DNA of 64,000 nt from Labilithrix sp. (GTDB lineage Bacteria > Myxococcota_A > Polyangia > Polyangiales > Polyangiaceae): positions 1,808,468 to 1,872,467 of the forward strand of contig JAHCIY010000002.1 of NCBI GenBank assembly GCA_026128965.1. The letters are read 5' to 3'. The notes under the pieces were generated by a model. The model saw only the letters and a list, made by a program, of their open reading frames with translations, was not told where the DNA came from and did not search any database. Within the stretch, counting starts at the first letter, position 1, and the number at the start of each line of letters is the position of its first letter. The position numbers and the translations under genes were made by a program. Shown here in pieces: positions 578 through 16,745 of this stretch.

Positions 578-1222
578 ATGAGCGACGAGAGCGACCTCCG
601 CATCAACACGCTTCATCGCTTCGAGAAGCACTCGCCGCGGCTCACGCTGCAGGAGTACTCCCACTGCGAGGTGCCCGCGGGATGCGGCGGCGTCGTGCTC
701 CGCTGGATCGATCCGCGGCTCGGTCCCTCCGCGCGGGTGCGCGTCGTCGCGATCGGCGCCGTCGACACGTGGCTCGACGGCGTCCTGCTCGGTGGTGATC
801 GCGCGCCGCTCGGGCCCGGTCGTCACGTCGTCGCGCTTCGCCTCCGCAGCCTCGGGCGGATGCCGTGGCGCGGGCGCGATCTCGACCTCGCGCCGCCGGT
901 GCCCGTCGCGATCGGCGTCTATCCCGATCGCGGACCTGGCGACCGCGCCGACAACATGCTGCCGATCGCGTCCGGCGTCGTACAGAGGTGGCATCCGGGG
1001 CCGCTCGCGTCGCCGCCGATCGCGCCGGACTTCGACGATCGCTCCTGGCGCGCGGTCGCGCACGCGGACGACGCCGCGCTCGCGTCGCTCCCCGCCGACG
1101 TGCGGCGGCCGTTCGAGCGGCTCGCCGCCGACGGGCTCACGATGCTCGCGCTCGGTGACGCCGGCGCGCCGCTCGACGAAGCGTGGGTCCGGATCTCGTT
1201 CGCGGCGCGGGAGGAGCGATGA
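578..1222 (+). CDS. hypothetical protein (214 aa), first gene of the radical-SAM/FGE operon
   Basis: ATG at 578. The stop overlaps the next start (ATGA at 1219-1222). No recognisable domain. Confidence 0.6.
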   Translation: MSDESDLRINTLHRFEKHSPRLTLQEYSHCEVPAGCGGVVLRWIDPRLGPSARVRVVAIGAVDTWLDGVLLGGDRAPLGPGRHVVALRLRSLGRMPWRGRDLDLAPPVPVAIGVYPDRGPGDRADNMLPIASGVVQRWHPGPLASPPIAPDFDDRSWRAVAHADDAALASLPADVRRPFERLAADGLTMLALGDAGAPLDEAWVRISFAAREER

Positions 1223-2493
1223 CGCGGCCCGCGCTCGTCCTCGTCCCGCAGCACTTCGGGAGCCTCGTCTTCGATCGCCGCACGTCGCGCTACCTCCCGT
1301 TCGATCACGAGACGACCGCGCTCTTCCGCCGCGCGGCCGCGGTCGGGACCTTCGCCGCGATCGAAGAAGAGGAGGACGCGGCGCGGCGCGCGCTCGTCGC
1401 GGACCTCTTCGCGCACTTCGAGGCGGAGGGCTTCTTCCTCCCCGACGGGCGGTTCGCGGGCGAGGTGCGCGCGCCGCACGCCGCGCCGCCGGTCGATCAC
1501 CTCCTCGGGCCGCTCGCGCTCCACCTCGAGGTCATCGCCGCGTGCAACCTGCGCTGCACGCACTGCTTCGCCGGTGCGCTGCCGCGGAAGGCGGACCTCT
1601 CGCTCGCGGAGATCGATCGGCTGTTCGCGGAGCTCGCCGCGCTCGGCACGTTCCGGATCGGGCTCACCGGCGGCGAGCCGCTCCTGCGGAAGGACCTCTT
1701 CGCGATCGTCGACGCCGCGCTCGCGCACGGGCTCCATCCGTGCCTCACGACCAACGGCCTCCTCGTCGACGAAGCGGTCGCGCGATCGTTCTCCGAGCGC
1801 GCGATGGCGTGGGTCAACGTCAGCCTCGACGGCGCGACCGCGGCGACGAACGACGCCGTGCGCGGCGCGGGCACGTTCGACGAGGTCACGCGCCGGCTCC
1901 GCGCGTACGGGCGGCACTTTCGCTTCACCCTCGCGTTCACGATCACGAGCGAGAACGCGGGCGAGGTCGTCGCCTGTGCGGAGCTCGCGCGCGAGCTCGG
2001 GGCGAGCAACGCCGTGTTCCGCCCGCTCTACCCCGTCGGCGTCGCGCGCTCGCGGCCGGACCTCATGCCGACGTTCGAAGAGTACACGCGCGCGCTCGAC
2101 GAGCTCGCGCGGCTCGGTCACGACGTCCACGCGATCGACACGTTCGCGCCGAGCGCGCGCGCCGACGCGCAGGCGAAGACGTTCAGCCCGCCGGGCTGCG
2201 GCGCGGCGAACCTCGTCGCGAGCGTGTCGGCGACGGGCGACGTGAACCCGTGCAGCTTCCTCGGCGCCGCGTTCGAGAGCGGCAACCTCCGCGCGCGATC
2301 GTTCTCCGAGATCTGGCGCGCGGGTCACGCGTTCCGTCGCCTCCGCGCCGCGCAGCCGGGGCCGGATCGCTTCTTCACCGGGTGCCGCGCGCGCTCGCTC
2401 GCCGCGTACGGCGACGTCGACGCTCCCGATCCGTGGGACCGCACGCGCGCGCGGCCGCCGCTCGCGACGATGCACCTGCCGGTGCTGCGATGA
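1219..2493 (+). CDS. radical SAM enzyme with C-terminal SPASM/twitch-like Cys region and N-terminal PqqD/RRE-like segment
   Basis: The CNLRCTHC motif is the CX3CX2C radical SAM signature; GLTGGEPLL is also present. C-terminal cysteines sit in GCGAAN, NPCSF and TGCRA contexts. The N-terminus VLVPQHFGSLVFDRRTSRYLPFDHETTALF resembles the PqqD-like RiPP recognition element. GGGAGGAG Shine-Dalgarno upstream; ATGA overlaps on both sides. Confidence 0.85.
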   Translation: MTRPALVLVPQHFGSLVFDRRTSRYLPFDHETTALFRRAAAVGTFAAIEEEEDAARRALVADLFAHFEAEGFFLPDGRFAGEVRAPHAAPPVDHLLGPLALHLEVIAACNLRCTHCFAGALPRKADLSLAEIDRLFAELAALGTFRIGLTGGEPLLRKDLFAIVDAALAHGLHPCLTTNGLLVDEAVARSFSERAMAWVNVSLDGATAATNDAVRGAGTFDEVTRRLRAYGRHFRFTLAFTITSENAGEVVACAELARELGASNAVFRPLYPVGVARSRPDLMPTFEEYTRALDELARLGHDVHAIDTFAPSARADAQAKTFSPPGCGAANLVASVSATGDVNPCSFLGAAFESGNLRARSFSEIWRAGHAFRRLRAAQPGPDRFFTGCRARSLAAYGDVDAPDPWDRTRARPPLATMHLPVLR

Positions 2494-3566
2494 GCTTCGA
2501 TCCCGAGTCCATCCTCGCGGCGGGAGGTCCCGGCTCGATCGACGAAGGCGAGCGCTGCCTCGTCGCGGCGGACTGGTTCCTGAGCCGCGGCGAGCGCGCC
2601 CTCGCCGCGTCGGCGCTCGATCGCGCGTACGGTCTCCTCCCGAACGACGAAGGCGTCGCGCGCCAGCGCCGCGCGGTCCTCGACGAGCTCGCGATCGACG
2701 AGCACGGCCTCCGCTTCCGCTACGTCCCCGCCGGCACGTTCCTCATGGGCTCGGCGACGGGCGATCCGGACGAGCGGCCGGTCCATCGCCGTCGCGTCGC
2801 CGCGTTCTGGATCACGGACGTGCCGCTGACGTGGGCGGCGTACTGCGCGTTGCTCGGCTGGAGCCCGCCGCCGGACGGTTCTCCTTCGGACGACGATCCG
2901 TCGCTCCAGCAAGAAGACGACGAAGGTTTCGTGCGTCCGGCGTTCATGCTCCGCGAGCTCGGGAAGATCCGCCTCCAGTACTGCGAAGGCGACACGCCCA
3001 CCGCGTTCGACTGGCGCTACCACTACGAGCGCGCAGAAGAGGACCCGCCCACGTACGACCGGAAGCCGCTCGTCGCGATCAGCGCATACGACGCGGAGGA
3101 GCTCGCGGCGGCGCTCTCGCGGCGGAGCACGGATGCGAGCTACCGCCTGCCCACCGAGGCGGAGTGGGAGAAGGCCGCGCGCGGAGGTCTGCTCGGTCGC
3201 CGCTGGTCATGGGGCGACGAGGCGCCGACGCGCGAGCGCTGCGACTTCGATCGGTTCGGCGCGTTCCACCTCACCGATCCGCGCGCGTATCCGCCGAACG
3301 GCTACGGCCTCCACGCGATGTGCGGCGGCGTCGCGGAGTGGACCGCCGATCGCTACGACGCGCTCGCGTACCACCGCGCGGCGCGAGGCGAGCCGCCCGA
3401 TCCCGACGCGCCCGCGAGGCGCGTCGTTCGCGGCGGCTCGTGGGCCGACTGCGCCGACGCGGTGACGGTCTCGTTCCGCGCCGCGCGGGAGCAAGGATCG
3501 TGGCGGCATCCGGACGTCCACGCGTGGGGCGCCCCCAACATCGGGTTCCGCCTCGTGCGTCGGTGA
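2490..3566 (+). CDS. FGE-sulfatase (SUMF1/EgtB/PvdO) domain protein
   Basis: Motifs FRYVPAGTFLMGS, DERPVHRRRV, RLPTEAEWEKAARGG, GGVAEWT, RGGSW and NIGFRLV match the formylglycine-generating-enzyme fold. The ATG overlaps the upstream stop (ATGA at 2490-2493). Confidence 0.85.
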   Translation: MSFDPESILAAGGPGSIDEGERCLVAADWFLSRGERALAASALDRAYGLLPNDEGVARQRRAVLDELAIDEHGLRFRYVPAGTFLMGSATGDPDERPVHRRRVAAFWITDVPLTWAAYCALLGWSPPPDGSPSDDDPSLQQEDDEGFVRPAFMLRELGKIRLQYCEGDTPTAFDWRYHYERAEEDPPTYDRKPLVAISAYDAEELAAALSRRSTDASYRLPTEAEWEKAARGGLLGRRWSWGDEAPTRERCDFDRFGAFHLTDPRAYPPNGYGLHAMCGGVAEWTADRYDALAYHRAARGEPPDPDAPARRVVRGGSWADCADAVTVSFRAAREQGSWRHPDVHAWGAPNIGFRLVRR

Positions 3567-3571
3567 CGCGC

Positions 3572-4483
3572 TCAGGGGCTCGCGGCGCCGATCTCGATGC
3601 GAGAGACGTCGACGTCGACGTCCGCGTCCCCGTTCTCCGGTGCGGCGAGGCGCGAGGAGATGCAGGTCTGCTGCACCTGGACCCTGATCGGGGCCTTGAG
3701 CGTGGCGCGGCGGGACGGCGTCTCCGGATCGAGGGTGACCGACTGGCCGGCGGCGTCGACGATCGACGCGCGCGAGCACGCGTTGCCGTTGGTGAAGTTC
3801 TTGAAGAAGGTCGCGCCGACGGTGAGCGTGACCGGCGCGTTCGGCAGCTCGGGCGCGATCGTCTTGAGGAGCGTCAGGCCGGTGCCGGCGTACTTGCTCG
3901 CGAGCCCGGGCGTCGACGTCGTCTTCGTCACCTCGACGGAGGTGGCGCTGAACACGACCTCGCCGGCGTAGTACGGGTTGCTCGAGCCGATGACCTTGAT
4001 CGGGGTCGGGAGGCGCTCGTAGCGCGTGCGCGTGGTCGAGAGCGGGTAGCTCGCGCCGCTGCCGTCGACGAGCGTGGCCGCCATGTTGTACCCGTTGCCG
4101 CCCTGCACCTGGACGTCGAACGACGCGAAGCCCTCCCACGTGTCGACGCCCCACTGCTCGAGCGTCCGGTTGGACGCGTGGGTGGGGATCGCGACGCGAC
4201 GGTTGCCGACCGGCACGACGGAGGGCCGCGGCGGCGCGGGGGGCGAGCACACGGAGTCGTCGTGGATCGCGCTCGCCTCGACCGTCTGCGTGAAGTCGGG
4301 CGCCCCGTCGCGCCCGCGGCAGAACACGTCGAAGCGCCCGTCCGGCCTCTGCACGATCGAGACGACGTCCGAGAGCGACGCCTGCTCGCCGGAGCCGACC
4401 TCCTCGCTGGTGGGAGCGGAACAAGCAACCAACGCAACGCCGAGCGCCGCAAGAAGAGAGGTGCGCATAAGGAACACGCGCAC
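3572..4483 (-). CDS. hypothetical lipoprotein
   Basis: N-terminus MRTSLLAALGVALVACS is a signal peptide plus lipobox. Convergent with the upstream operon. Confidence 0.7.
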   Translation of the reverse strand: MRVFLMRTSLLAALGVALVACSAPTSEEVGSGEQASLSDVVSIVQRPDGRFDVFCRGRDGAPDFTQTVEASAIHDDSVCSPPAPPRPSVVPVGNRRVAIPTHASNRTLEQWGVDTWEGFASFDVQVQGGNGYNMAATLVDGSGASYPLSTTRTRYERLPTPIKVIGSSNPYYAGEVVFSATSVEVTKTTSTPGLASKYAGTGLTLLKTIAPELPNAPVTLTVGATFFKNFTNGNACSRASIVDAAGQSVTLDPETPSRRATLKAPIRVQVQQTCISSRLAAPENGDADVDVDVSRIEIGAASP

Positions 4484-4645
4484 CCTTTAGCGCGAAGCGA
4501 CGACGCGTCAACGCGATCCGAGGCCGAAACGCCGCTCGAAAATCTTCCCTGCAAAATGATCGCGCCCGCATTTTCCGCGCTACCGCGCCATCGCGGACGC
4601 TCTTCGTGAGGTCGCGCATCGCCTCCCGTGAAATGCGTCGAAAGG

Positions 4646-5101
4646 TTAGCGCAAGCCGGCGCACGCGGCGCCGAGCTCCGGGTGTGCGGCGCAGTCGTCG
4701 TGGAGGATGCAGCCGGTCGTGCCGGCGAGCCACGCGACGGCGAGGTCGATCTCGCCGCGCACCTTGCCGATGGTCGGGAGCGACTCCTTCTCCCAGCCGC
4801 GGCCCGCGCGGCCGTGGCGGATGACGAGCGCCTGGCGCGGGCTCGGCGTCGCGAGGTCGGCGCGGCGCGCGCCGCGTGGGACCGTCGCGGTGAAGTACAT
4901 GTCGTCCCAGCCGCGCACGACGAGGCGGAGGCCGGACAAAAGCGCCGAGGCCGCGACGCCGCCGGTCCGCGCGTGCGCATACCACGCGACCGCGCGCACG
5001 AGGCGCTCGCGCGGCGCACGGGCGAACGTCCGCGCGACCACCCCGCCCGGCGGCGCTTGCCCAACGAGATGGAAGAGACGTGCGACGAGCGGCGCGCTCA
5101 T
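4646..5101 (-). CDS. hypothetical protein
   Basis: Protein-like composition. The start ATG is adjacent to the stop of a small upstream ORF (tcATGAgcgctca). Confidence 0.45.
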   Translation of the reverse strand: MSAPLVARLFHLVGQAPPGGVVARTFARAPRERLVRAVAWYAHARTGGVAASALLSGLRLVVRGWDDMYFTATVPRGARRADLATPSPRQALVIRHGRAGRGWEKESLPTIGKVRGEIDLAVAWLAGTTGCILHDDCAAHPELGAACAGLR

Positions 5102-5107
5102 GAGCGC

Positions 5108-5416
5108 TCACGCGGCCTCGACGCCGTACACCGTGCCGTCGTCGACCCTCGCGGTCACGGCTTCGTCTTTCCACTCGGCGCGCAGCGTGGTCCCGTCTTC
5201 GCGGAGCTCGCCGCCGCGGTGCGCGACGTAAGCCGCGAACGCGTATCGCTGTGTGCCGGCGTCGGCGCAAAAGGGCCCCAGAAGCGGCCGCGCAAGCGGG
5301 CGCGAAGCGCCCCGAGTCTTCGAGGGCCGTGTCTGGGGTGGGGGTGTCGGGGGCGAAGCCCCTGACGATGACAAGACATCATAGCTCGAATGGTCCCACG
5401 TCCGCGGGCACGCCAC
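5108..5416 (-). CDS. small hypothetical protein; start uncertain
   Basis: Short ORF ending 7 nt upstream of the 4646-5101 gene start. Only the C-terminal roughly 50 aa look protein-like. Confidence 0.2.
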   Translation of the reverse strand: MACPRTWDHSSYDVLSSSGASPPTPPPQTRPSKTRGASRPLARPLLGPFCADAGTQRYAFAAYVAHRGGELREDGTTLRAEWKDEAVTARVDDGTVYGVEAA

Positions 5417-6911
5417 GAGGCTTGCCGGCGCGATCGAGCATCACGGAGGGGAGGCGCGGCGCGATGTCGAGGAAGGGCGCGCCGGGCTTCGGCTGGAAGT
5501 CCGTCACCGTGCTCGGCAGGCCGGTCGGCAGCCGCGTGAACCAAGCCGGGTCGAGGTCCGGGCGCGCGAGCTCGCTCACGCCAGGGCCGCGCCGGCCGTC
5601 GAACCGGCCCGCGAGGTAGACGTTGTGCTCGTAGACGTTGTTCGTCACCGTGTTGTCCGTCTCGAGCCACGTCGCGGTCGGGCGCGCGCTCACGCGGTCG
5701 CCGCTGACGGTCATTCCGACGAACAGGTTGTTGCGGACGTCGCAGGAATCCGAATTGGCGACGAACTGCAGCATGTGCCTGTCGTTCGTAGACGCAAATA
5801 GGTTGTGATAAACGCGATTGTGGTGCGACCCGAGCCGCGGGTTGAATCGCCTTTTGTCGGCCGGGTCCGCCGCCTCGCTCCAGAAACTGACGCCGTGTCG
5901 GCCCCACGACGCAAATACGTTGTTGCGCACCATGCTGTAACGCACGGACGTGAAATTCGAGCCCTGCGCGTCGCCGTGGTGGAAATAGTTATTTTCGACG
6001 AGGAAGAAGTCCGACGCGCCGCGGCCGCCGTCGCCGGTCCCTGCGACGGCGTCGCAGTCTTCCGTCCGGAAGTCGCCGTCGCAGGTCGACGCAGGGTCGG
6101 CGTTGATCTGGAACGTCGCGCCCATGTTGTCGAACAGGTCGTTGTTCCGGACGATGTTCAGGTCGCTCCCGTTCGAGAGGTAAATGCCATGTCCGTCGTC
6201 CTCGCCCGAGTTGCTGACGACGTTGTCCTCGAATACCGACCAATCCACCGCGCCGGTGAGGACGCCGTCGAAGCCCTGCCCGTCGAGCCGGCAATGGAGC
6301 ACCGCGATCCCCCACGTGTGCTGGCTCGCGGCGTAGTCGCCGCCGACGGCGCGCACGCCGTAGCGCCCGCCGCGGAGCTCGAAGCCGTCGACCGCGACGT
6401 AGCTCGTGCCCTCGAAGTTGAAGCAGCTCGCGCGACCGTGGCCGCAGCACTGCATGCGAACGCCGCGCGACCCGTCGGGGTTCTTCTCGGCGTAGAGGAC
6501 GATCGGCGCGTCGTACGTGCCGTCCTTGCCGACCTCGAAGCAGCCTTGGTACGTCCCGCGCTGGAACACGACGCGCGTCCCGGGCGCGGCCTTCGACAGG
6601 CCCTCCCGCACCGACGCCGGCGACGACGGGCTCGCGCCGTTGCCGTTGCCGGTGGGGCTCACGTAGACGACCGTCGCTGGCGTGTAGTCGGGATCGGTGT
6701 AGTGCCGATTGAATTGCTCGTTGAACCCGGCGAAGGGCTGCTTGCGCCGCACCGCCGGCTTGTTCGGCGGCATCGTCTGCGCCATCGCGTCGTCGCGCCG
6801 ATCGAAGGCCACGAGCGGATCGAAGCTGACCCGCGGCGCCGATCCCGCGCCCGGACAGCCCGCCAGCGCCAGCGCGAGGATCGCGGCGCCGAGCAGGCCG
6901 TCCTTCGTCAT
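5379..6911 (-). CDS. lipoprotein with right-handed parallel beta-helix repeats (pectate-lyase-like fold)
   Basis: N-terminus MTKDGLLGAAILALALAGC is a lipobox. Repeated NNxxxN/VRNN/NNVF motifs are typical of PbH1 beta-helix repeats. Confidence 0.75.
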   Translation of the reverse strand: MTKDGLLGAAILALALAGCPGAGSAPRVSFDPLVAFDRRDDAMAQTMPPNKPAVRRKQPFAGFNEQFNRHYTDPDYTPATVVYVSPTGNGNGASPSSPASVREGLSKAAPGTRVVFQRGTYQGCFEVGKDGTYDAPIVLYAEKNPDGSRGVRMQCCGHGRASCFNFEGTSYVAVDGFELRGGRYGVRAVGGDYAASQHTWGIAVLHCRLDGQGFDGVLTGAVDWSVFEDNVVSNSGEDDGHGIYLSNGSDLNIVRNNDLFDNMGATFQINADPASTCDGDFRTEDCDAVAGTGDGGRGASDFFLVENNYFHHGDAQGSNFTSVRYSMVRNNVFASWGRHGVSFWSEAADPADKRRFNPRLGSHHNRVYHNLFASTNDRHMLQFVANSDSCDVRNNLFVGMTVSGDRVSARPTATWLETDNTVTNNVYEHNVYLAGRFDGRRGPGVSELARPDLDPAWFTRLPTGLPSTVTDFQPKPGAPFLDIAPRLPSVMLDRAGKPRGVPADVGPFEL

Positions 6912-6977
6912 GCGATCAACCTACCACCGGAGGGTCGGAGGCTGCCCGCAAGCTCGTGTCTTCGCGCGTCGGAAGAC

Positions 6978-7700
6978 TCAGCGAACAGGGATGCTGCAGA
7001 CGACGGTGCAGTCGGAGCAGGTCGACGTGCGTCCGTTGCGATCGAGGCACGCGTCGGTAACGGCGTCGGCGATCGCGGGGCAAGCCATGTCGTTCGCGAG
7101 CGAGCGGCACTGCGTGAAGCCGGAGAAGGTGTAGCCAGAGATCACGCTGCTGCCACCACCACCGCCGCCTCCACCACCACCGCCTCCACCACCACCGCCG
7201 CCTCCACCTCCTCCTCCGCCGTTGAGCGAGTCGGACTGCTCGAACGCGATCTCGCAGGGGCCGCCGACGAACCCGAAGAGGCCGATCTCGCGGACGGTCG
7301 CGCCGTCGCCGTTGTTGATCGAGTAGTAGGACGCGATCCTGGAGCCGGGCTCGAGCTGTGGGCCGCGAACGAGGACCGCGGTGATCGGGAGGCGCTGTCC
7401 GGTGACGAGCGACGTGCCGTAGAGGGACATCTGCGTGAGCTGCGCGTTGCACGCGGCCGGCCAGGACATCTTCATGTAGCGACCGCGCACGGGCCGAAGC
7501 GCGCGATGCGGCGTCGCGAGCGTGTTCACGTAGCCGAAGCCGGGCACGCTGATGTTGACGATGTTCTGCCAGCCGGTGAGCGCCTGGTCCGACGTCTCCG
7601 CGACGTCCTCCTCCTCTTCGGAGGGCGCCGCGCAACCCGCGGCCGCAAAGGCACCAAGCACGACCGAAGCGAGGACGAAATATGAGGTCATTTTGAACAC
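6978..7700 (-). CDS. lipoprotein with 23-residue poly-Gly linker and Cys-rich C-terminal domain
   Basis: Signal peptide and lipobox (LGAFAAAGC). The Gly run is encoded by a GGN repeat at about 7150-7220. The C-terminus has 7 Cys. Confidence 0.7.
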   Translation of the reverse strand: MFKMTSYFVLASVVLGAFAAAGCAAPSEEEEDVAETSDQALTGWQNIVNISVPGFGYVNTLATPHRALRPVRGRYMKMSWPAACNAQLTQMSLYGTSLVTGQRLPITAVLVRGPQLEPGSRIASYYSINNGDGATVREIGLFGFVGGPCEIAFEQSDSLNGGGGGGGGGGGGGGGGGGGGGGGSSVISGYTFSGFTQCRSLANDMACPAIADAVTDACLDRNGRTSTCSDCTVVCSIPVR

Positions 7701-7839
7701 TTGACGCCTCCCGATCGATTCATAAAAACGAACAAGTGTCTATGTAGCAACCACCTCCCCACATGCAAGGCAAGGTGGGAACATGTGCGCCAGTTTCAGA
7801 TTTTTTCAGGGAAGGTTCACACCAAGGCAGATCGCGTGG

Positions 7840-8860
7840 TGAGACGCGCGCGGTCGCGCGAGTCGCGAGTCGCGAGTCGCGAGTCGGTGCTTGCTCTCGC
7901 GGTCTCGCGGTCTCCGGTCCCCGCGGTCGCGCGAGTCGCGAGTCGCGAGTCGGTGCTTGCTCTCGCGGTCTCGCGGTCTCCGGTCCCTGCGGTCGCGCGA
8001 GTCGCGAGACGCGAGTCGGTGCTTGCTCTCGCGGTCTCCGGTCCCCGCGGTCGCGCGAGTCGCGAGTCGGGATCGCGAGACGCGAGACGATGCTCGGTCC
8101 CGCGGTCGCGAGACGCGAGACGGCGCTCGGTCCCGCGGTCGTGCGCTTCGCGAGACGCGAGACGGCGCTCGGTCCCGCGGTCGTGCGCTTCGCGGGTCGC
8201 GAGATGGTGCTCGGTCTCGCGGTCGTGCGCTTCGCGAGTCGCGAGACGCGAGATGGTGCGCGGTCGCGTGGATCGCGAGACGCGAGACGGCGCTCGGTCT
8301 CGCGGTCGTGCGCTTCGCGGGTCGCGAGATGGTGCTCGGTCTCGCGGTCGTGCGCTTCGCGAGTCGCGAGACGCGAGATGGTGCGCGGTCGCGTGGATCG
8401 CGAGTCGCGAGGTGGTGTTTGGTCCCCGCGGTCGCGCCGATCGCGAGTCGCGGGATGGTGTTCGGTCTCGGTGCCTCGAGGTCGCGCCGATCGCGAGGCG
8501 TGAGGTGCGAGGTGGTGTTTGGTCCCCTCGCTATCCGAACCCGAACGGCGCATTCGTACGCATGAGCGTTTGATATGGGCCTCGCACGGCCTCCGGCCTT
8601 TCGCTACGTCGTCGGTCAGGGGCGCTGGCGGCCTCTGCCTTTCGCTACGTCGTTCCGGGGGCGCGCCGATCGCGAGGCCGCAAGACGCGAGGCGGTGCTC
8701 GTCCCGCGGGCGCGCGGATCGCGAGGCGCGAGGCGCGAGGTGGTGTTGGTCTTGCGGTGATGCCGATCGCGAGTCGCGAGACGGTGCTCGTCTCGCGGTC
8801 ACGCCGCTCGTGTGGTGCGAGGCGTGGTCGGTCCCGCGGTCACGTACGCCCTCCGAGCGC
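7840..8860. repeat. complex tandem repeat array (minisatellite-like), TCGCGAG-rich
   Basis: Near-identical units of about 68-70 bp (cggtcgcgcgagtcgcgagtcgcgagtcggtgcttgctctcgcggtctcgcggtctccggtcccc) are repeated about 3.5 times. This is followed by 42-bp units and a 123-bp unit repeated almost perfectly twice (8189-8311, 8312-8420). ORFs 7701-8573(+) and 7720-8895(-) are repeat artefacts. Confidence 0.85.
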
Positions 8861-8971
8861 ACGTGGGCGTGAGGGCGCGCCCGCGACGAGGGCATAGCGA
8901 GCGGGGCGAGGCGGGCGTCGATCGCTACGCCGAAGCGTGAGCGGAAAAGCGTCTACGATCGGCTTCGGGCG

Positions 8972-9679
8972 ATGAGCTACTACTGGATGTATTATGCAGT
9001 GATGCTGTTCGCGGCGTTCGCGCAGCAGAATCCGTACGTCGCGCTCGGGGTCGTGGGGTTCTTCCTCGTGCGGCGATGGTTGCCCGATCCCGTCGTCATC
9101 GTGAAGAACCTCGGACGTATCTCGGGGCTGAAGCGCCAGGCGACGATGAACGCGGCGAACGTCACCGTGCGGCGCGATCTCGGGCAGGCCTACCTCGATC
9201 TCCGCTGGCACGGCTCGGCGCTGCGGTGGCTCGACGAGGCGCGCGCGAAGGCCCCGCGCGATCAGGAGATCGCCTACCTGCGCGGGCTCGCGCTGCTCGG
9301 GAAGGGCAGGGCAGAAGACGCGCTGCGCGCCTTCGGCGAGGCGGTGGGGATCGATCCCGACAAGGGCGAGCCGTTCTCGAGCGCGAGCTCGAAGGCGAAC
9401 GAGCGCACCTTCCGGCGCTTCGGCGAGGCGTACCTCGGCGCGGCGAAGGCGCTCGAAAAGCTGGGGCGCCACGAGCAGGCCGAGGAGGCGCTCTGTACGT
9501 GCACGACCTTCAACTCGTCCACCCTCGAGCCGCTCGTGATGCTCGCGCGCGTCCGCGCTCGACGCGGCGACGAAGCGGGCGCCGCCGACGCACGCCGGCA
9601 AGCCCGGAAGACCTGGCGCGAGCTCCCCGGCTTCATGCGGCGCCGTGAGCTCGGATGGTGGCTCCGCTCGTTCGTCTAG
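8972..9679 (+). CDS. membrane-anchored TPR-like protein
   Basis: N-terminal hydrophobic helix (YYAVMLFAAF..VALGVVGFFLV) followed by helical repeat-like sequence. Confidence 0.65.
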   Translation: MSYYWMYYAVMLFAAFAQQNPYVALGVVGFFLVRRWLPDPVVIVKNLGRISGLKRQATMNAANVTVRRDLGQAYLDLRWHGSALRWLDEARAKAPRDQEIAYLRGLALLGKGRAEDALRAFGEAVGIDPDKGEPFSSASSKANERTFRRFGEAYLGAAKALEKLGRHEQAEEALCTCTTFNSSTLEPLVMLARVRARRGDEAGAADARRQARKTWRELPGFMRRRELGWWLRSFV

Positions 9680-9724
9680 GACCGCGAGACCGCCCGCCGC
9701 CCTGAAGCCAAGCCACAAGAGCGC

Positions 9725-11335
9725 GTGGCGAAGTGTCAGGTCCGGACGGGCCCGCCGTCTGGTGCTACGAGCATGGCCTGGCGAGATCGACCTGCGACGT
9801 TTGCCGCCGCGACGCTGGGGGCCGCGTTCGACGCGGCGCGAGGACGAGCCGCGGCCGCGGCCGATCGCGCCGCGGCGGCTTCGGTCGTCGCGGCGCTCCT
9901 CCCCCACGTCGAGCCGACGGAGCGCACGATCGCCGAGTCGGTCGAGACGCTCCTCGCCTGCGTCGACGATCCCGCCGCGATCGAGGTCGTCGCCGCCGCG
10001 CTCCCCGCTCGCGCCCGCGACGACCACCGCATCGCCGCCGCCCTCGCGCGCGTCGCGCGCCGCGCCCACGAGCGCGGCGCCGCTCGCTCCGTCCTCGTCC
10101 TCCTCGATCTCCTCCTCGCGACGCCGGAGAGCGCCGCCCTCGTCGACGAAGCGTGGGCCGCCGCCGCGTTCGCCGCGCTCGCGCCGGCGGAGGTGGGGAG
10201 CTCACCGCGCGTGGCGCGCGTGCGGAGGCTCTGGGCGGAGCACAAGAAGACGCGACCGAGCTGGCTCGGCGACGTCGACGACGAGAAGACCGACCTGTTC
10301 CTCCCGAGCTTCTCCCGCGCGCGTCACGCGGAGCTCGTCGCCGTCGGCGCGATGCCTCCGCCCGTCGCGCGCTCCGCCGGCCGCTACCGGCTCCTCGAGG
10401 AGATCGGCGCCGGCGGCATGGGGACGGTGCACCTCGCGCGCCTCGCCGGCTCTTGCGGCTTCGAGCGCTGGGCCGCGATCAAACAGCTCCACCCCTACTT
10501 CCAGGAGGACGACGACTTCGTGCGGATGTTCCTCGACGAGGCGCGGCTCACCGCGGCGATCGTCCATCCGAACGTCGCGAGCATCCTCGAGCTCGGAAGG
10601 GAAGACGACGGCTACTGGATCGCGATGGAGTACCTCCACGGCGAGCCGCTCTCCGCGTGGCTGCGCAGCGTCCGCGTGAGCGGCCGCCCGGTGCCGCCGG
10701 AGATCGCCTGCCGGATCGTCGCCGACGCCGCGGCGGGCCTCCACGCCGCGCACGAGCTCGCGTCCCCCGACGGCGCGCCGCTCGAGCTCGTGCATCGTGA
10801 CGTGACCCCGCACAACGTCTTCGTGACGTTCGACGGCGCGACGAAGGTCGTCGACTTCGGGCTCGCGAAGCTCTCCGCGGTGGAGGGGACGCGCTGCGCG
10901 GGCCGATCGGTCGCGGGGAAGCTCCCGTACATGTCGCCCGAGCAGGTCCGCGGCGAGCGGGTCGATCGTCGCGCCGACGTCTTCGGGCTCGGCGTCATCC
11001 TCTGGGAGCTCACCACGACGCGCCGCCTCTTCCGCCGCGAGACCGATCTCGACACGCTCTCGCAGGTGCTCGAGTGCACGCCGCCGCGACCGAGCACCGT
11101 CGTCGCCGGCTATCCCGGCGACCTCGAGGGCGTCGTGATGAAGGCGCTCGCGAAGGACCCCGCCGCGCGCTACGCGACCGCGCGGGAGCTGTCGCGCGCG
11201 CTCTCGTCGGTCCTTCATCGACGGAGCCTCCTCGTCGGCGCGGAGGAGGTCGCGGCGTACGCGCGCTCCCTCCTCGCCGATCAGGTCCGCGCGCGCGACG
11301 CGTGCCTCGCGCGCCATCGCGGCAGCATGACCTGA
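9725..11335 (+). CDS. Ser/Thr protein kinase with Ala-rich N-terminal region
   Basis: The Hanks kinase motifs are present: GAGGMGTVHLA, AIK, HRDVTPHNV, DFGLAK, SPEQ. The true start may be the internal M at about 9773. Confidence 0.8.
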   Translation: MAKCQVRTGPPSGATSMAWRDRPATFAAATLGAAFDAARGRAAAAADRAAAASVVAALLPHVEPTERTIAESVETLLACVDDPAAIEVVAAALPARARDDHRIAAALARVARRAHERGAARSVLVLLDLLLATPESAALVDEAWAAAAFAALAPAEVGSSPRVARVRRLWAEHKKTRPSWLGDVDDEKTDLFLPSFSRARHAELVAVGAMPPPVARSAGRYRLLEEIGAGGMGTVHLARLAGSCGFERWAAIKQLHPYFQEDDDFVRMFLDEARLTAAIVHPNVASILELGREDDGYWIAMEYLHGEPLSAWLRSVRVSGRPVPPEIACRIVADAAAGLHAAHELASPDGAPLELVHRDVTPHNVFVTFDGATKVVDFGLAKLSAVEGTRCAGRSVAGKLPYMSPEQVRGERVDRRADVFGLGVILWELTTTRRLFRRETDLDTLSQVLECTPPRPSTVVAGYPGDLEGVVMKALAKDPAARYATARELSRALSSVLHRRSLLVGAEEVAAYARSLLADQVRARDACLARHRGSMT

Positions 11336-11336
11336 C

Positions 11337-12158
11337 TCACTCGGGCAGCGGGAACGAGCCGTTGCAGGGGCCGAAGCGACCGTTCGTGTCGTCGCCGCCG
11401 CGGTACCACTTGCCGTCCTTGCACTGCTGCCAGACCTTGTCGAACTTCGACTCGACGCAGGCCCCGGGCTCCATCGTGTCCTGCAGCGTGTTCGAGAAGC
11501 AGCCGCCGACGATCGCGGCCGGGGGCGGCGGCGGCGCGGGCGTCGCGGGATCGGGCTCGCTCGGCGAGCCGGGCGTCGCGGGATCGGGCGTGCTCGGCGC
11601 GGGCGTGGGCGCCGGCGCGCTCTCCGCTTCGTTCACGTCGTCCTCGGTCGGCTCGGGCATCGACACCGGCGTCGTCACGACGTCGGTCCCGGGCTGCGTC
11701 GCGGCCGGCGGCGGCGGCGGCTTCATGCGATCGCACTCGGACTTGTGCGCCGTGTAGCTCGACCAGGTCTCGATCCCCTCGGCCTCGAAGATCGCGCGGG
11801 CGCACTGCGCGTTGAGGGCCGGATCGTAGAGCTCCTCCGTGCTGTTCGGGCAGCCGTCGAGCTCGCCGACGTACTTGCTCGCGATCTGGAAGAGGCCGCG
11901 CTTCACGTTGCGGCCGCTGCGGTCGAGGGCGCGGTCGTAGTAGCTCGACTCGTACTTCGCGGTGCAGAGCATCTTGCCGATCGCGCTCTCCTCGAAGCCG
12001 GCGGCGCGGAGCTCGCTCGAGACCTGCGACGGCGAGAGGCGGGTCCCGGTGAGCAACTTCACGTCGCGCCCCGACTCCCCGACCTCTTCGGCGGCGCAGC
12101 CGACGAGCACAGCGAGGAGAGAGGCAACAGCGACCCGGAGGAAGGTGGCGGCGTTCAC
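11337..12158 (-). CDS. C-type lysozyme/alpha-lactalbumin (GH22)-like lipoprotein with Pro-rich linker and Cys-rich C-terminal domain
   Basis: Lipobox LVGC. CTAKYESSYY...RGLFQIASKY...C...QCARAIF...EC aligns to hen lysozyme CAAKFESNF...YGILQIN...NCAKKIV...RC. The catalytic Glu is conserved and the Asp52-equivalent position appears substituted. Confidence 0.6.
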   Translation of the reverse strand: MNAATFLRVAVASLLAVLVGCAAEEVGESGRDVKLLTGTRLSPSQVSSELRAAGFEESAIGKMLCTAKYESSYYDRALDRSGRNVKRGLFQIASKYVGELDGCPNSTEELYDPALNAQCARAIFEAEGIETWSSYTAHKSECDRMKPPPPPAATQPGTDVVTTPVSMPEPTEDDVNEAESAPAPTPAPSTPDPATPGSPSEPDPATPAPPPPPAAIVGGCFSNTLQDTMEPGACVESKFDKVWQQCKDGKWYRGGDDTNGRFGPCNGSFPLPE

Positions 12159-12298
12159 GCCAGGGGTATCAGCAACGGTCGGACCAACACCTACAACGAC
12201 GCCTCACCCCAAATTTCAGGTACATTTCGGTGTGGGCGGACACTTCCAGTGTCGGAAGGGTGGACAATTCTCCCACCAGTGCACACGAGATGCCGGCG

Positions 12299-12709
12299 TC
12301 AGTGGACGGTGGAGAACGGATCGGCCTCGGGCTCCGGGGTCGGCTCGGGCGGGGGCGGCGGCTTCTTCGGTGGCGGCGGAGGGCGCTGCTTCACCGGCGG
12401 CGGCGGTGGCGCGGCGGTCGGCTCCGCCGCCGGATCGTCGCCGATCGTCAGCGTCGCCGGCCTCGTCTCCGTCTCCGTCTCTGCCGACGTCAGCTCCGCC
12501 GTTGCGGCCGGCGTGGCGGCTTCGCTCGGCGCAGCACGATGGTCCCACCGTTCGGGACGACCGAAGTAGAGTCCCGCGACGCCGAGCCCCGCGACGAGCG
12601 CGCCGATCCCGAAGAGAAATAGCCAGGTTCCGCCGCGCGATCGCTTCGGCCGCAGACCGTGGCGGGTAACGAACGGATCGGTCGCATCCATACCGCGAGC
12701 GCATTGCAA
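12299..12709 (-). CDS. small membrane-anchored Pro-rich protein (TonB-N-terminus-like)
   Basis: One TM helix (WLFLFGIGALVAGLGVAGLYF) followed by PPPPPVKQRPPPPPKKPPPPPEP. Confidence 0.35.
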   Translation of the reverse strand: MQCARGMDATDPFVTRHGLRPKRSRGGTWLFLFGIGALVAGLGVAGLYFGRPERWDHRAAPSEAATPAATAELTSAETETETRPATLTIGDDPAAEPTAAPPPPPVKQRPPPPPKKPPPPPEPTPEPEADPFSTVH

Positions 12710-12730
12710 GGCTGCGGCCCGCGCGCTGCG

Positions 12731-13543
12731 TCAGAGCTTCCCGTCGAAGCACTCTTCCTTCATCGCGGCGAAGGCGACCTCGCTCTTCATCAGCTTCATG
12801 TGCGAGACGTCCGCGACGACGACGTTCTTTCCGTCCGGGAACTGTCCGCCCGCCATCGGCGTGTCGATCGTCCCGTCCTGGGGCGAGATGACGGAGCAGC
12901 GCACGATCGAGGCGAGCTCGGCGCGATGCTCGTCCATGTACGCCATCACCGGCGCGGACTGGAACGGCGAGTACGTCGTGTAGACGTCGGTGCACCGGAA
13001 GCCGAGCCGGCAGTTGAATGGCTGCTTGTCCTGTCCGTAGATCGGCGACGACAACGCGACGAACGCGCGGACCCGCGGCGTCATCTTCCGATCGAGGACG
13101 GCGCGCAGCGCGATGATCCCTCCGAGCGAATGCCCGAGCACGTCGAACTTCGTCGTCGCCGGATAGCCCGCCATGACGCCCTCGAGCTTCGCGCCGATCT
13201 CGCCGACCATGCCCGCGAGGTCGCTGCCGTCGTCGTAGTCGCCGAGGTCGTGCGCGTGCCGCTCCCCGTCGAAGCCGGCCGCGATCATGAGCTTCTTGTA
13301 CGTATCGAACGAGCGCATGCCGTCGACGAAGCCCGGCGCGCCCGCGCCGAAGCCGCGCACGAACAGCTTGGGGACGACGCCGTCCTCCTCCGGAGCGCCT
13401 CCCGTCGCAGGTGCAGGTGCAGCCTCGTCGACGCGCGGCGCCTCGTCCGTGAGGACGACGACCGGCACCGGCGGCGCGTCCGTCTCGGCGGCGGAGGTGC
13501 AGGCGGCGAGAGCGAGCGCGCAGAGGGGACCGAGCGAGCGCAT
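12731..13543 (-). CDS. alpha/beta-hydrolase lipase/esterase lipoprotein
   Basis: MRSLGPLCALALAAC lipobox. GHSLGG nucleophile-elbow motif. Confidence 0.75.
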   Translation of the reverse strand: MRSLGPLCALALAACTSAAETDAPPVPVVVLTDEAPRVDEAAPAPATGGAPEEDGVVPKLFVRGFGAGAPGFVDGMRSFDTYKKLMIAAGFDGERHAHDLGDYDDGSDLAGMVGEIGAKLEGVMAGYPATTKFDVLGHSLGGIIALRAVLDRKMTPRVRAFVALSSPIYGQDKQPFNCRLGFRCTDVYTTYSPFQSAPVMAYMDEHRAELASIVRCSVISPQDGTIDTPMAGGQFPDGKNVVVADVSHMKLMKSEVAFAAMKEECFDGKL

Positions 13544-13648
13544 CGCGCGCGAGGCTGCAACCGTCGTTCCGCCCGCGCTCGCTCGTCGATCTCCGCGGAG
13601 ACTCGCGCGCATCGCACCTGGCCCCCGATTCGATCGCGGACCGGGGTG

Positions 13649-14242
13649 TCACGCGCGCGATGCAAGCGCGGCGACCGCCGCCGCGGCGGCGAGCTTGTGC
13701 GCCGCCTGCCACGGCGGCCCGATCGACTTGCCCATCGCGTCGATCGCGGCGCTCACGCGGACGCGCTCGCGATCGTACCAGTGCACCTTCCATCCGCGCG
13801 CCTCCGCCGCGGCGGCGAGCGCCTCGCGGTACATGACCGTGTCGGCGTAGGTCTGCGCGCGGTTGTCGGCGATGCGCTCCTCGACCGTCGGCGGCAACGG
13901 CGGGCACACGCGGAGCGTGATGCCGCGGATCGGGACCTTCGTCGACGCCACCGCCGCCGCGAGATCCGCGAGCGCCTCCCGCGCGCCGCGTGCGGCGGCC
14001 ACGCGCACCCGCTCGACGAGCGCGACGGCGTCGGCGAGCGGCATCGGCCGCGCGCCGGGGGTGCTCAGGTAGCGGCCGACCGCCCACGATCCTTGATGAT
14101 GATGCGGGTGCGTCGGCATGTCCGGGCCGGTGAGGTCGACGCGTCTTCGATCGAGCAACGCTCCGTCCGATGCGATCGTGACGAGCACCGCGGAGCTCCC
14201 GTTCTCGACGACACCGACGACGGCGGTCCGTGCTCTCGCCAT
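13649..14242 (-). CDS. hypothetical protein
   Basis: Protein-like composition. Start chosen at MARART so that it does not overlap the divergent VOC gene. Confidence 0.45.
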   Translation of the reverse strand: MARARTAVVGVVENGSSAVLVTIASDGALLDRRRVDLTGPDMPTHPHHHQGSWAVGRYLSTPGARPMPLADAVALVERVRVAAARGAREALADLAAAVASTKVPIRGITLRVCPPLPPTVEERIADNRAQTYADTVMYREALAAAAEARGWKVHWYDRERVRVSAAIDAMGKSIGPPWQAAHKLAAAAAVAALASRA

Positions 14243-14315
14243 GCCCTTCGCTCCAGCGTACACCGCGTCGTCGCGACCGTTGACGACCTCGCCGCTTCGT
14301 TCGACGCTGCCGCGC

Positions 14316-14738
14316 ATGGGAAACCCTTTCGTGCACCTCGATCTCGCGACCGACGACGTCAAAGCGGCGAAGAAGTTCTACCGGAGCGTCTTCGACTGGA
14401 AGCTCACCGACTTCCCGGAGATGCAGTGGACCGGCATCGACGTCGGCAAGGGCGTCGGCGGCGGCATCGGCGCGAAGCAGTCGCCCGATCAGCCGACGTC
14501 GTGGACCGCCTACGTCGACGTCGCGGACGTGAAGAAGACGATCGCGAAGGCGAAGAAGAACGGCGCGACGATCGTCATCCCATACATGGAAGTCGGGAAC
14601 ATGGGCGCGCTCGGCGTCTTCGTCGATCCGCAAGGCGCGACGCTCGGCGTCTGGCAGACGGCGAAGAAGGCCGCGAAGAAGGCCGCCGCGAAGCCGAAGG
14701 CCAAAGCGAAGGCGAAGGCCAAGACGAAGAAGCGCTGA
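14316..14738 (+). CDS. VOC (glyoxalase/bleomycin-resistance fold) protein with Lys/Ala-rich histone-H1-like C-terminal tail
   Basis: MGNPFVHLDLATDDVKAAKKFY is a VOC N-terminus. The tail is AKKAAKKAAAKPKAKAKAKAKTKKR. Confidence 0.75.
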   Translation: MGNPFVHLDLATDDVKAAKKFYRSVFDWKLTDFPEMQWTGIDVGKGVGGGIGAKQSPDQPTSWTAYVDVADVKKTIAKAKKNGATIVIPYMEVGNMGALGVFVDPQGATLGVWQTAKKAAKKAAAKPKAKAKAKAKTKKR

Positions 14739-14747
14739 CGGGACGGA

Positions 14748-15812
14748 TCACTTCCGGGCGGCGTCGCGCGCCGTGAGGCGCTCGACGGTCCCGACCATCG
14801 AGGCGGGGAGATCGATCGTGAGGTGGTCGCCGCGCTCGATCTTCGTGTCGTGCCGCGGCCGCGTCTGCTTGCCGGAGCTCCGCGCGAGCGCGACGATCCG
14901 CCCGTCGATCTCGTCCTCGCAGCTGACGACGGTCTTCCCGTCCCACTCGCTCGGCGCCGAGATCTCCATGTCGACGCGGAGGTCGCCGTTGGAGCGGTAC
15001 ACGCCGAGCACGCCGTTCGAGATCGCCTGCAGCGCGATGAGCGGCCCCGCGAGGGCCGACGCGCTGAACGTCTTCTCGATGTCGAGCGCGGAGCCGATCT
15101 TCTCGGCGACGCGCTGATCGAACACGCGCATCACGACGCGGATGTCCGGGTTCTCGCGCTTCGCGTCGATCGCGACCTCGAGGTTCGTGAAGTCGTCGTC
15201 CGTCGCGCACACCACCGCGTGGGCCCGCGCGATGCCCGCGGCGGAGAGCAGGTCGTCCTGGCGGGCGTCGCCGTGGTGCACCGGGACCGAGAGCCGCTCC
15301 GCGGTCTGGACGAACGACTCCTTCTTGTCGCGCTCGATCGCGACGACGTCGACGCCGAGCGCCTTGAGCGACTCGACGATGCGGATGCCGACGTGGCCGA
15401 GGCCGCAGACGACGATGTGACCCTTCATTCGATCGGTCATGATCTTCACCCAGAGGTTGCGTCGCTCCTCGACGTCGAAGACCGACGCGCCGACGCGCAC
15501 GACGCCGCGGACGAGCAGGAGGACACCGAGCGCCGGCGTGATCCAGAACACGAAGCGGGCGATCGGCGCGTGCGGCAGCGTCGCGGTCGGCTCGAAGAAG
15601 AGCTGCGTGTACATCCCGTACATCTCGGCGCCGAAGTCCTCGCGCGCCTCGCCGATGCGGCCCATGTCCCACCGAACGATCGACGCCGCCGCGACGATGT
15701 ACACCGCGGTCGCGACGAGCCACGGCACCATCTTCCACACGAAGTGCCAGAAGATCGGCGACGACAGCGACGGCGTCGTGGCGAAATCGGGCTGCGGTCT
15801 CTTGCGGTTCAA
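14748..15812 (-). CDS. membrane protein with TrkA-N/RCK (NAD-binding) domain
   Basis: N-terminal TM helices, then HIVVCGLGHVGIRIVESL Rossmann motif, typical of RCK domains. Confidence 0.75.
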   Translation of the reverse strand: MNRKRPQPDFATTPSLSSPIFWHFVWKMVPWLVATAVYIVAAASIVRWDMGRIGEAREDFGAEMYGMYTQLFFEPTATLPHAPIARFVFWITPALGVLLLVRGVVRVGASVFDVEERRNLWVKIMTDRMKGHIVVCGLGHVGIRIVESLKALGVDVVAIERDKKESFVQTAERLSVPVHHGDARQDDLLSAAGIARAHAVVCATDDDFTNLEVAIDAKRENPDIRVVMRVFDQRVAEKIGSALDIEKTFSASALAGPLIALQAISNGVLGVYRSNGDLRVDMEISAPSEWDGKTVVSCEDEIDGRIVALARSSGKQTRPRHDTKIERGDHLTIDLPASMVGTVERLTARDAARK

Positions 15813-15863
15813 GGCGCTACGCGCACCAGGCTACGCCGCGAGCGCCGCGCGCGACGGAAAAGA

Positions 15864-16745
15864 TCAGCGCGCGGGCGGACCGAGCTCGATCTTTTGCGCG
15901 AGCTTCTCGCGCTGCTCCGGCGTCAGCACCGAGACGAGGTCCGCGAGCGGGTTGCCGCGGAGGTGGAGCTCGACGTTCGGCTTCGCCGTGGCCGGCGGCG
16001 TGACGAACGCGGTCGCGTCGAAGCTGTCGGCCTTGAAGCTCTGGAGCTTCGCCTTCATGTCGAGGCGGGCCGCCTCCATGTTGCCGCGCATCTCCGCGAG
16101 CTTCGCCGGGTCGGGCCTCGCCGGCGCGCTCGCCTCGATCCGCGCCTTGAGCTCCTCCTTCTGCGCGTCGGTGAGCCCGAGGTCGTCGCCGAACGGGAAG
16201 ACGACCTTGCGCATGACGTGGGGCGGACCCTTGGCGCCCTTCGGGCCCTCCTTGCTCGGATCGACCTTCGGCGCGTGGGCCTCGATGTCGTCGACGAGCG
16301 CGGCGCGTTGCGAGGCGGTGAGCGTGTCGTGGAGCGTCTGGATCGTCTTCGCCGTCGCGGCGAGGTCCGGCGCCGGCGGCTTCGGGAGCGCGGCGACGTT
16401 CCCGGCGCGGATCGCGGCCGCGAGCTCCTTCGCGCGGCTCGGATCGAAGGGCGGACGCTCGCGGTGCGTGAGCCCCTCGATCGTCGCGCGCTGCTCGGCG
16501 GTGAGGTCGAGCGGCGCGCGAAGGGCCGCGCCGACGAGGAAGTCGGGGCCGCCGTGCGGGCCGTGGCGGTGGATCGGGCCGGCGCCGCGCTCCTCCGCCG
16601 ACGCGAGCTCGACCTGCGTGACGATCTGGGTGCGCGCCGAATCGGTGGTCTCCGCGCCGGAGGTAGTGCCGCTCTCCGCGCTGCAACCTGCGACGAGGGA
16701 GGCGAGGGCGAGGACCGGAAGCGAGAGCGAACGAATCGAGATCAT
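15864..16745 (-). CDS. periplasmic LTXXQ-motif (Spy/CpxP-like) lipoprotein
   Basis: MISIRSLSLPVLALASLVAGCS lipobox. Three LTxxQ motifs: LTAEQRATIEGL, LTDAQKEELKARIE, LTPEQREKLAQKIE. Confidence 0.7.
   Translation of the reverse strand: MISIRSLSLPVLALASLVAGCSAESGTTSGAETTDSARTQIVTQVELASAEERGAGPIHRHGPHGGPDFLVGAALRAPLDLTAEQRATIEGLTHRERPPFDPSRAKELAAAIRAGNVAALPKPPAPDLAATAKTIQTLHDTLTASQRAALVDDIEAHAPKVDPSKEGPKGAKGPPHVMRKVVFPFGDDLGLTDAQKEELKARIEASAPARPDPAKLAEMRGNMEAARLDMKAKLQSFKADSFDATAFVTPPATAKPNVELHLRGNPLADLVSVLTPEQREKLAQKIELGPPAR

Follow-up and report, generated by a model that had tools for sequence, protein, structure and literature searches.

The 1,271-bp gap between two divergently transcribed genes of Labilithrix sp. 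is dominated by a tandem repeat array at ~7849–8850. The array bears no sign of function, and we prefer to see in it a young, expanding minisatellite and no regulatory device. On balance we think it probable that the array is a lineage-private, non-coding minisatellite that arose from a quasi-palindromic heptanucleotide repeat through slippage and unequal exchange, and that it has no sequence-specific function. It is built from ~19 units (U1–U19) of 33–73 bp each, which abut one another head-to-tail in a single orientation, and a repeat search recovers 15–17 copies of a 32–39-nt core, all in one register and one orientation. The features of the gap and its flanks are given below in the coordinates of the window, by which we mean the whole 64,000-nucleotide (64-kb) stretch of DNA that was analysed.

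6978–7691 (start also given as 7700), minus strand: left flanking gene, encoding a lipoprotein-like protein that contains a tract of 24 Gly residues; from the gene call, GC3 0.84, homologues P0121–P0125.
7764–7787, minus strand: motif CACATGTTCCCACCTTGCCTTGCA upstream of the lipoprotein gene, common to the orthologue locus L128; 62 bp outside the array.
7857–8053, plus strand: Block 1, units U1–U3 (73, 66 and 58 bp); Tandem Repeats Finder (TRF) reports 66 bp × 3.2 at 91%.
8054–8073, plus strand: U4, a truncated unit with left-arm heptads only; recognised by eye, with a weak partial nhmmer match at 8054–8069.
8074–8398, plus strand: Block 2, units U5–U12 (33–42 bp), the most homogenised part; TRF reports 42 bp × 8.6 and 125 bp × 2.9.
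8399–8531, plus strand: U13–U15, degenerate; nhmmer scores of 39, 33 and 24 bits, 55–72% identity to U10.
8532–8664, no strand assigned: 133-bp non-repeat insert that splits the array; CGCGAGN motif absent.
8665–8850, plus strand: array part B, U16–U19 (41–49 bp), degenerate, at the TPR-gene end; nhmmer scores of 25–44 bits, 65–81% identity to U10.
8972–9679, plus strand: right flanking gene, encoding a TPR protein that matches Pfam TPR families.

Apart from U4, which has only the left arm, each unit combines one to four CGCGAGN heptads with a GGTGCTCGG-like centre and with the inverted arm TC(C/T)CGCGGTCG. Parsing of the units gives a consensus of CGCGAG(T/A/G) heptads, a centre (C/T)GGTGCT(C/T)GG, and the arm followed by a few bases. 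The left heptads are complementary to the right arm, and the unit is thus an imperfect palindrome, or hairpin. Block 1 units are the longest elaboration of this plan, with 3–4 CGCGAGT heptads, the centre CGGTGCTTGC, and then 3–4 inverted arms (TCTCGCGG...). The motif is highly concentrated at this locus: CGCGAG occurs at 38 per kb within the array versus 2.0 per kb outside it (19-fold), and the double heptad TCGCGAGNCGCGAG is present 15 times in the 64 kb (0.20 expected), a count matched by none of 100 shuffles. All 15 copies are on the plus strand, with none on the minus strand, and all fall within 7863–8780; the copies elsewhere that the original prediction had proposed looking for were not found outside the array in the 64-kb window. 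Pure heptad runs within the array (CGCGAGT × 4.3, × 3.3 and others, at 100% identity by TRF) are uninterrupted 7-nt tandems longer than expected by chance.

The array is organised hierarchically, with heptads nested in units and units nested in a 125-bp higher-order repeat. TRF identifies repeats of 66 bp × 3.2–3.7 at 7858–8107, 33 bp × 2.1 within the array, 42 bp × 8.6 at 8106–8467, 125 bp × 2.9 at 8106–8470, and 48-bp × 2.8 and 41-bp × 2.9 arrays at 8650–8844; head-to-tail units of ~10–100 bp are typical of a minisatellite, and the array, with TRF periods of 33, 42, 48, 66 and 125 bp, is built in this way. The 125-bp repeat lies in Block 2, where it consists of three units (42 + 42 + 41 bp) present as copies at 8134–8258 and 8259–8383, which are identical at 120 of 125 positions. 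Exact identity extends over at most 104 bp, between 8176–8279 and 8301–8404 (offset 125). Several units are identical to one another (U6 and U7, U8 and U11, U9 and U12), and U1 and U2 match at 65 of 66 positions.

These measurements agree with the original prediction as to the presence of an array between the lipoprotein and TPR genes, on whose place TRF, the repeat search and the motif counts concur, and as to its nested organisation; the recent expansion that it proposed is likewise borne out by the identical units and the 104-bp exact repeat. The dimensions differ in part. A unit of about 68 bp repeated 3.5 times is correct in kind, but the measured period is 66 bp; the 42-bp period stands, but with 8.6 copies by TRF and not 2; and a long-period repeat is present, but its period is 125 bp in 2.9 copies and not a near-perfect doubling of 123 bp, the supposedly perfect duplication extending over 104 exact bases. 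The 133-bp insert and the imperfect-hairpin nature of each unit had not been mentioned previously. The insert has its own 41-bp direct repeat, with GCCTTTCGCTACGTCGT at 8596–8612 and 8637–8653, and shows neither a fold signal (z +1.38) nor an Rfam match.

Divergence among the units is graded along the array. In the unit identity matrix the centre and left share 88–100% identity, while U13–U19 on the TPR-gene side share 51–79%; within Block 2 the core identity between units is 72–100%. Because of this pattern we regard the array as young and active in the middle and as old and decaying at its right end, and the unit alignments suggest that the centre and left are still homogenising whereas the older, TPR-proximal end is degenerating. 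The recent duplications are evidence of past change in the array, and instability of its copy number is plausible.

The array does not encode protein. Four long ORFs run across it, and in these the GC content at the three codon positions is flat (GC1, GC2 and GC3 of 0.69–0.73) with no codon-phase GC signal, whereas the genuine neighbouring genes have GC3 of 0.84–0.92 and GC2 of 0.50–0.58. None of the array ORFs matches a Pfam family, and the public gene call leaves the gap without any gene. We thus rejected a coding repeat protein, in agreement with the earlier view of the long ORFs as artefacts of the repeat, and the array is free of protein constraint, as minisatellites are. A known RNA family was rejected too, with nothing in the entire 64-kb window at the Rfam gathering score; at E-values up to 1 there were just two matches, to snoRNA and microRNA models and at chance level, and no tRNA was found.

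The hairpin symmetry of the units was examined by comparing the pairing of their arms. For 14 proposed pairs scored across 15 distinct units, pairing holds in 84.1% of cells, as compared with 20–54% when the partner is slid by 1–3 columns. When partners are shuffled among units, the mean is 85.0% paired, and 464 of 500 shuffles pair at least as well as the real arrangement; compensatory variation in the same pairs and units is absent beyond one pair that is changed on both sides. The symmetry is therefore real, but because shuffled partners pair equally well it stems from a shared ancestral unit and carries no sign of selective upkeep, and we rejected a selected RNA or DNA structure for the array. 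Individual units have weak fold scores (+1.0 to −3.8 standard deviations relative to dinucleotide shuffles), the array as a whole folds about 3.5 standard deviations better than its shuffles with both strands alike (z −3.5 and −3.6), and the strand preference of wobble pairs, judged by reading, is mixed across units. The array thus shows neither the family match nor the compensatory changes that mark a structured non-coding RNA.

The array is absent from the nearest available relatives of both flanking genes, which have no more than 79% protein identity to the flanking proteins and are not syntenic with the Labilithrix stretch. Upstream of the four TPR homologues examined (P0002, P0003, P0004 and P0006, at 79, 77, 74 and 71% identity respectively), a same-strand gene either overlaps the start or ends no more than 37 bp away, and there are no repeats; the genes that precede these homologues differ between relatives and from the Labilithrix stretch. 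Five homologues of the lipoprotein are detectable, and at the one locus examined (P0121, 72% identity, on a 168-kb contig) the upstream gap is 228 bp and repeat-free. The site of the array is thus a junction, with a different gene order in every relative examined. We rejected the possibility of a pseudogene left over from the genes found ahead of the TPR or lipoprotein gene in relatives, as tblastn gave no match in the window. The TPR protein itself is identical to Labilithrix sp. MBX3232059.1 (KIT84_19910, GCA_019637155.1) and to MCW5813304.1, both of which are MAG entries, and its hydrophobic N-terminus, judged by eye, suggests that it is probably membrane-anchored.

Sequences related to the unit were sought with a profile HMM built from 18 full units and run in nhmmer with all filters off; within the source genome this search covered 64 kb. 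The profile gives 18 matches of 24–46 bits inside the array, and no significant match in the other 63 kb or in the loci of the relatives (best E 0.03, 11 bits). Its scores do not exceed 17 bits across the 120 listed metagenome loci, or 15.7 bits across a further 1.08 Mb of genome and viral loci. JGI metagenomes contain no match to a 23-base pattern of the unit, the array is unmatched by blastn against plasmids, a loose gapped motif recovers 22 singletons and no arrays in viral contigs, and a loose 19-base gapped pattern gives a single chance match per locus among the 80 loci listed from the genome collection. A locus from the same MAG series (L031) was set aside as a 48-bp coding repeat unrelated to the array. 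A literature search returned nothing relevant on the heptad repeat, the locus or tandem repeats in Labilithrix.

The heptad alone has a much wider distribution. A metagenome scan for two double heptads 20–50 bases apart matched at least 120 contigs, and at least 55 of the loci have as their top-scoring repeat a pure (CGCGAGN)n of ~7–60 copies with any base at position 7. At other listed loci the period is a multiple of seven (21, 28, 35, 42, 49 and 112, e.g. L133), and these are heptad-derived higher-order arrays. A crude gene finder based on GC3 places 99 of the 120 listed heptad loci in intergenic DNA; reading of the listed loci reveals no bias towards tandem, convergent or divergent gene pairs, and many of the listed arrays are at contig ends. 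Because the motif itself was the object of the search, the scan demonstrates recurrence and not enrichment over other heptads. The (CGCGAGN)n building block is nonetheless generic and common in the intergenic DNA of GC-rich metagenome contigs, and the heptad is all that those arrays have in common with the Labilithrix unit, in which the runs are short at 2–4 copies.

Long heptanucleotide repeats are a recurrent feature of prokaryotic genomes, with the cyanobacterial STRR heptamers as a further instance. At least in the summary of Mrazek et al. 2007 given in PMC4679880, heptanucleotides are the most abundant of the long 5–11-nt simple repeats in most prokaryotic genomes, and polymerase slippage is credited for them. 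Arrays of the TAACTGA heptamer occur intergenically in Beggiatoaceae and Cyanobacteria, and some are present in one species and missing from the shorter gap of its close relative (PMC4679880). The Labilithrix array resembles such simple repeats (LSSRs), as that summary portrays them, in being an intergenic 7-nt tandem of sporadic occurrence among lineages whose growth is attributed to slippage. It does not adjoin a start codon, whereas the Beggiatoaceae TAACTGA sets adjoin start codons from upstream (PMC4679880). It differs further in that its heptads are confined to 2–4 copies inside a 33–73-bp hairpin unit, which is itself repeated ~19 times with a 125-bp higher-order period. In being head-to-tail, non-coding and recently duplicated, with units in the 40–100 bp class, the array is also similar to mycobacterial MIRUs and other bacterial intergenic minisatellites (VNTR loci), and polymorphism of its copy number would be expected. 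MIRUs are present at ~40 loci per genome, mostly within operons, and some are translated. The Labilithrix unit, by contrast, is hairpin-shaped and is found at one locus in 64 kb, between divergent genes. We classify the array as a bacterial intergenic minisatellite based on a heptanucleotide repeat, mildly unusual in its length, its hierarchy and its hairpin unit.

A route to such an array can be envisaged in which a (TCGCGAG)n repeat gains an inverted copy of itself, giving a ~42-bp unit capable of forming a hairpin, in which a loop separates 2–4 CGCGAGN heptads from an inverted arm. The self-complementarity of TCGCGA and the pairing between the arms of the unit would allow single strands to fold during replication, and this folding would favour slipped-strand mispairing and unequal recombination. 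Amplification might then have proceeded from heptads within units to whole units, and then to the three-unit 125-bp block. The nested periods (7, 33–66 and 125 bp), the identical neighbours and the gradient of decay are the expected trace of slippage and unequal exchange. The anatomy of the array, its non-coding status, its restriction to this locus and lack of conservation in the searches made, and its recent duplication are demonstrated; we infer both the mechanism and the neutrality. At 1 kb the array is long by the standard of bacterial intergenic regions and has some cost of upkeep, which counts against a neutral reading.

The position of promoters relative to the array bears on whether it could act on its neighbours. 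The motif at 7764–7787, of the form CACATGTTCCCAC.TT.CCTTGCA, is situated ~73–96 nt from the ATG in both the Labilithrix stretch and the orthologue locus, and it is the sole upstream element of the lipoprotein gene common to the one orthologue locus examined; it is probably the promoter element of that gene. If so, then the array is not the lipoprotein promoter. No sigma-70-like site was found in 7500–9200 and no sigma-54-like site inside the array, the sigma-54 pattern being at chance level across the 64-kb window (126 versus 136 expected), and we rejected the idea of the array as a set of sigma-54 or sigma-70 promoters. There is also no recognisable TPR promoter in the 110 bp between the end of the array and the TPR start. 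The sole evident effect of the array is that it sets the flanking genes 1.27 kb apart, and it does so upstream of the proximal motif that the lipoprotein gene shares.

An alternative explanation is that the array is a cis-regulatory platform, with ~19 sites that bind a regulator or nucleoid protein controlling one or both divergent genes with a strength set by copy number. Its location between divergent genes, the direct and inverted half-sites in each of the co-oriented units, and a 42-bp period close to four helical turns would all suit a protein-binding platform, and there is a precedent in Haemophilus influenzae, where the copy number (9–28) of 7-bp repeats in the hmw1A and hmw2A promoters alters transcript level, with an inverse correlation (PMC2424069). 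The hmwA repeats are located upstream of a gene for a surface protein, as heptanucleotide tandems are upstream here, but they are pure 7-bp repeats within the promoter, whereas the Labilithrix runs are short and the array is upstream of the shared proximal motif. We consider a platform of this kind, which the original prediction had also raised, unlikely and unsupported. Being present nowhere else in the 64 kb, the double heptad is unlike a regulon operator; the adjoining gene calls include no transcription-factor domain, the nearest being that of a sigma-54 response regulator ~9 kb away. Homologues of both flanking genes manage without an upstream array, the motif shared upstream of the lipoprotein gene is outside the array, the units at one end decay freely, and promoter-like sites are lacking in the intervals searched. 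A broader proposal is that heptad-derived hairpin arrays constitute a functional class in GC-rich bacteria, with the CGCGAGN repeat and its inverted arm recruiting a DNA- or RNA-binding protein or extruding cruciforms, as insulators or expression "volume knobs" tunable by copy number (here upstream of two envelope-related genes), and with the metagenome (CGCGAGN)n arrays as simpler members; we would give this little credence. We attach a slender chance to a role as RNA, whether as a leader that supplies the TPR gene with multiple hairpins or as a repeat-derived non-coding RNA. The units do fold to 10–20-bp hairpins, folding of the whole array surpasses that of shuffled sequences on both strands, and the lack of a recognisable promoter in the 110 bp before the TPR start means that transcription could begin further upstream. 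However, Rfam matches and covariation are absent, shuffled partners pair as well as real ones, per-unit fold scores are weak and the wobble-pair preference is mixed, and the TPR homologues sit directly behind another gene and are leaderless.

The palindromic character of the units also recalls dispersed elements. REPs are present in hundreds of dispersed copies and alternate in orientation within clusters, and the Labilithrix units are likewise imperfect palindromes of 30–40 nt in GC-rich intergenic DNA, so that the array might be a cluster of REP/MITE-like palindromes piled up at one site. This seems to us very improbable, as there is just one cluster, with all units head-to-tail in one orientation unlike BIME clusters, and isolated copies are absent from the other 63 kb despite dozens of intergenic gaps (best outside E = 0.03). 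No RAYT-type (Y1) transposase turned up among the gene calls or the scanned portion of the window's ORFs, and the serine recombinase gene at 58312–59103 is ~50 kb distant. An assembly artefact in the array's length or unit order, with a repeat collapsed or expanded in a MAG, is in our judgement highly improbable. The source is indeed a MAG, and such repeats often end metagenome contigs, as do many of the listed heptad arrays. But no 105-mer occurs twice in the array, whose longest exact repeat is 104 bp, so that it can be bridged by 150-nt reads; the graded divergence of units and the structured higher-order repeat are unlike a mis-join; and contig JAHBWE010000017.1 is 100% identical over the 19,679 bases that it shares with the stretch, array included, with no mismatches or gaps, although the two assembly records may not be independent. 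Finally, the architecture is reminiscent of centromere-like or iteron sequences: F-plasmid sopC consists of 12 direct 43-bp repeats, in each of which SopB binds an inverted repeat (PMC3177203), and the Labilithrix array has 42-bp direct repeats, each with an inverted repeat in which 84% of arm positions pair. The likeness is one of architecture only. The sopC units are near-identical and adjoin sopAB on a plasmid, whereas the Labilithrix array decays at one end and lies on contigs of chromosomal size (275 kb in one record and 2.5 Mb in the other), with no plasmid match and just loose-motif singletons in viral contigs; no ParA, ParB, Rep or Cas domain was found in the gene calls of 1–19679 or in the ORFs scanned beyond, and the adjacent parA, parB or rep genes of a plasmid or phage replicon are missing from these. 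A CRISPR-like array is no closer a fit, since the units abut without unique spacers, the period recurs as a whole, and no Cas domain is present in called genes within 10 kb on each side, and we find either interpretation barely credible.

We return, then, to the ordinary reading of the array as a minisatellite. If it is true, the array is likely to be a hypervariable marker for typing this Labilithrix population, as well as a place where an assembly could break off or come out at the wrong length, and it would provide a clean case of a heptanucleotide repeat becoming a hierarchical hairpin minisatellite at a rearrangement-prone spot. The recurrence of CGCGAGN in GC-rich environmental bacteria could merit a systematic survey.

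Heptad repeats of the kind on which the array is built, the array being a non-coding run of hairpin-shaped units based on CGCGAGN, also occur in metagenomes. At least 120 GC-rich contigs carry either (CGCGAGN)n or heptad-derived arrays; in the JGI metagenome loci matched in a scan for paired double heptads (L132–L251) these are heptanucleotide microsatellites of about 7–60 copies, together with heptad-derived arrays with periods of 21–112 bp. They are for the most part intergenic and are frequently located at contig ends. In two of these loci, L132 and L189, a second repeat resembling CTTAATCGC is present downstream.

Within the window, the array is divided by an insert, and several other features were recorded.

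8532–8664: 133 bp non-repeat insert splitting the array
25125–26708, minus strand: ORF bounding one side of a 58 bp repeat
27208–28620, plus strand: AMP-binding enzyme, bounding the other side
30807–33248, plus strand: 813-aa ORF with a major-vault-protein 'shoulder' domain (PF11978; E 2e-25)
58312–59103: serine recombinase (Resolvase and Recombinase domains)

Neither a fold signal nor a match to any family was obtained for the insert. It contains a direct repeat with a 41 bp period, in which GCCTTTCGCTACGTCGT starts at 8596 and again at 8637, and it is slightly richer in AT between 8545 and 8580. It may represent the intergenic sequence that was there first, or it may have been inserted later.

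Apart from the array, the window has a single strong tandem repeat, 2.5 copies of a 58 bp unit at 98% identity (26784–26926). Its sequence is unrelated to that of the array, and it likewise lies in a 500 bp gap separating divergent ORFs. Beyond about 40000 and up to 64000, Pfam matches are lacking for most ORFs, GC3 of the ORFs is 0.72–0.89, whereas it is 0.82–1.00 in the first 40 kb, and the serine recombinase is located here; this region looks like an island or an integrated element. The end of the Labilithrix sp. MAG contig JAHBWE010000017.1 would fall at about position 62880.

The genes flanking the array were also compared with their relatives. The TPR gene (8972–9679) is well conserved (55–79% identity, more than 100 homologues), and its upstream and downstream neighbours differ in each close relative examined, including those at L122, L125 and L274. 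Judged by eye in one relative (L274), upstream similarity is limited to the 25 nt or so that precede the start codon.

The lipoprotein-like protein (gene 6978–7691, minus strand) contains an unbroken run of 24 glycines. The 15/18 bp tandem repeat that encodes this run (7152–7220) is a second expanded repeat, very close to the array; the protein's five homologues have 7–9 glycines or short Gly/Ser linkers at this position. The motif CACATGTTCCCAC.TT.CCTTGCA is common to 7764–7787 (minus strand) and to about 7903–7930 of L128, the locus of a 72%-identical orthologue, and lies 73–96 nt 5' of the start codon in both genes. The motif is a candidate for the promoter or operator of a small lipoprotein-gene family of unknown function.
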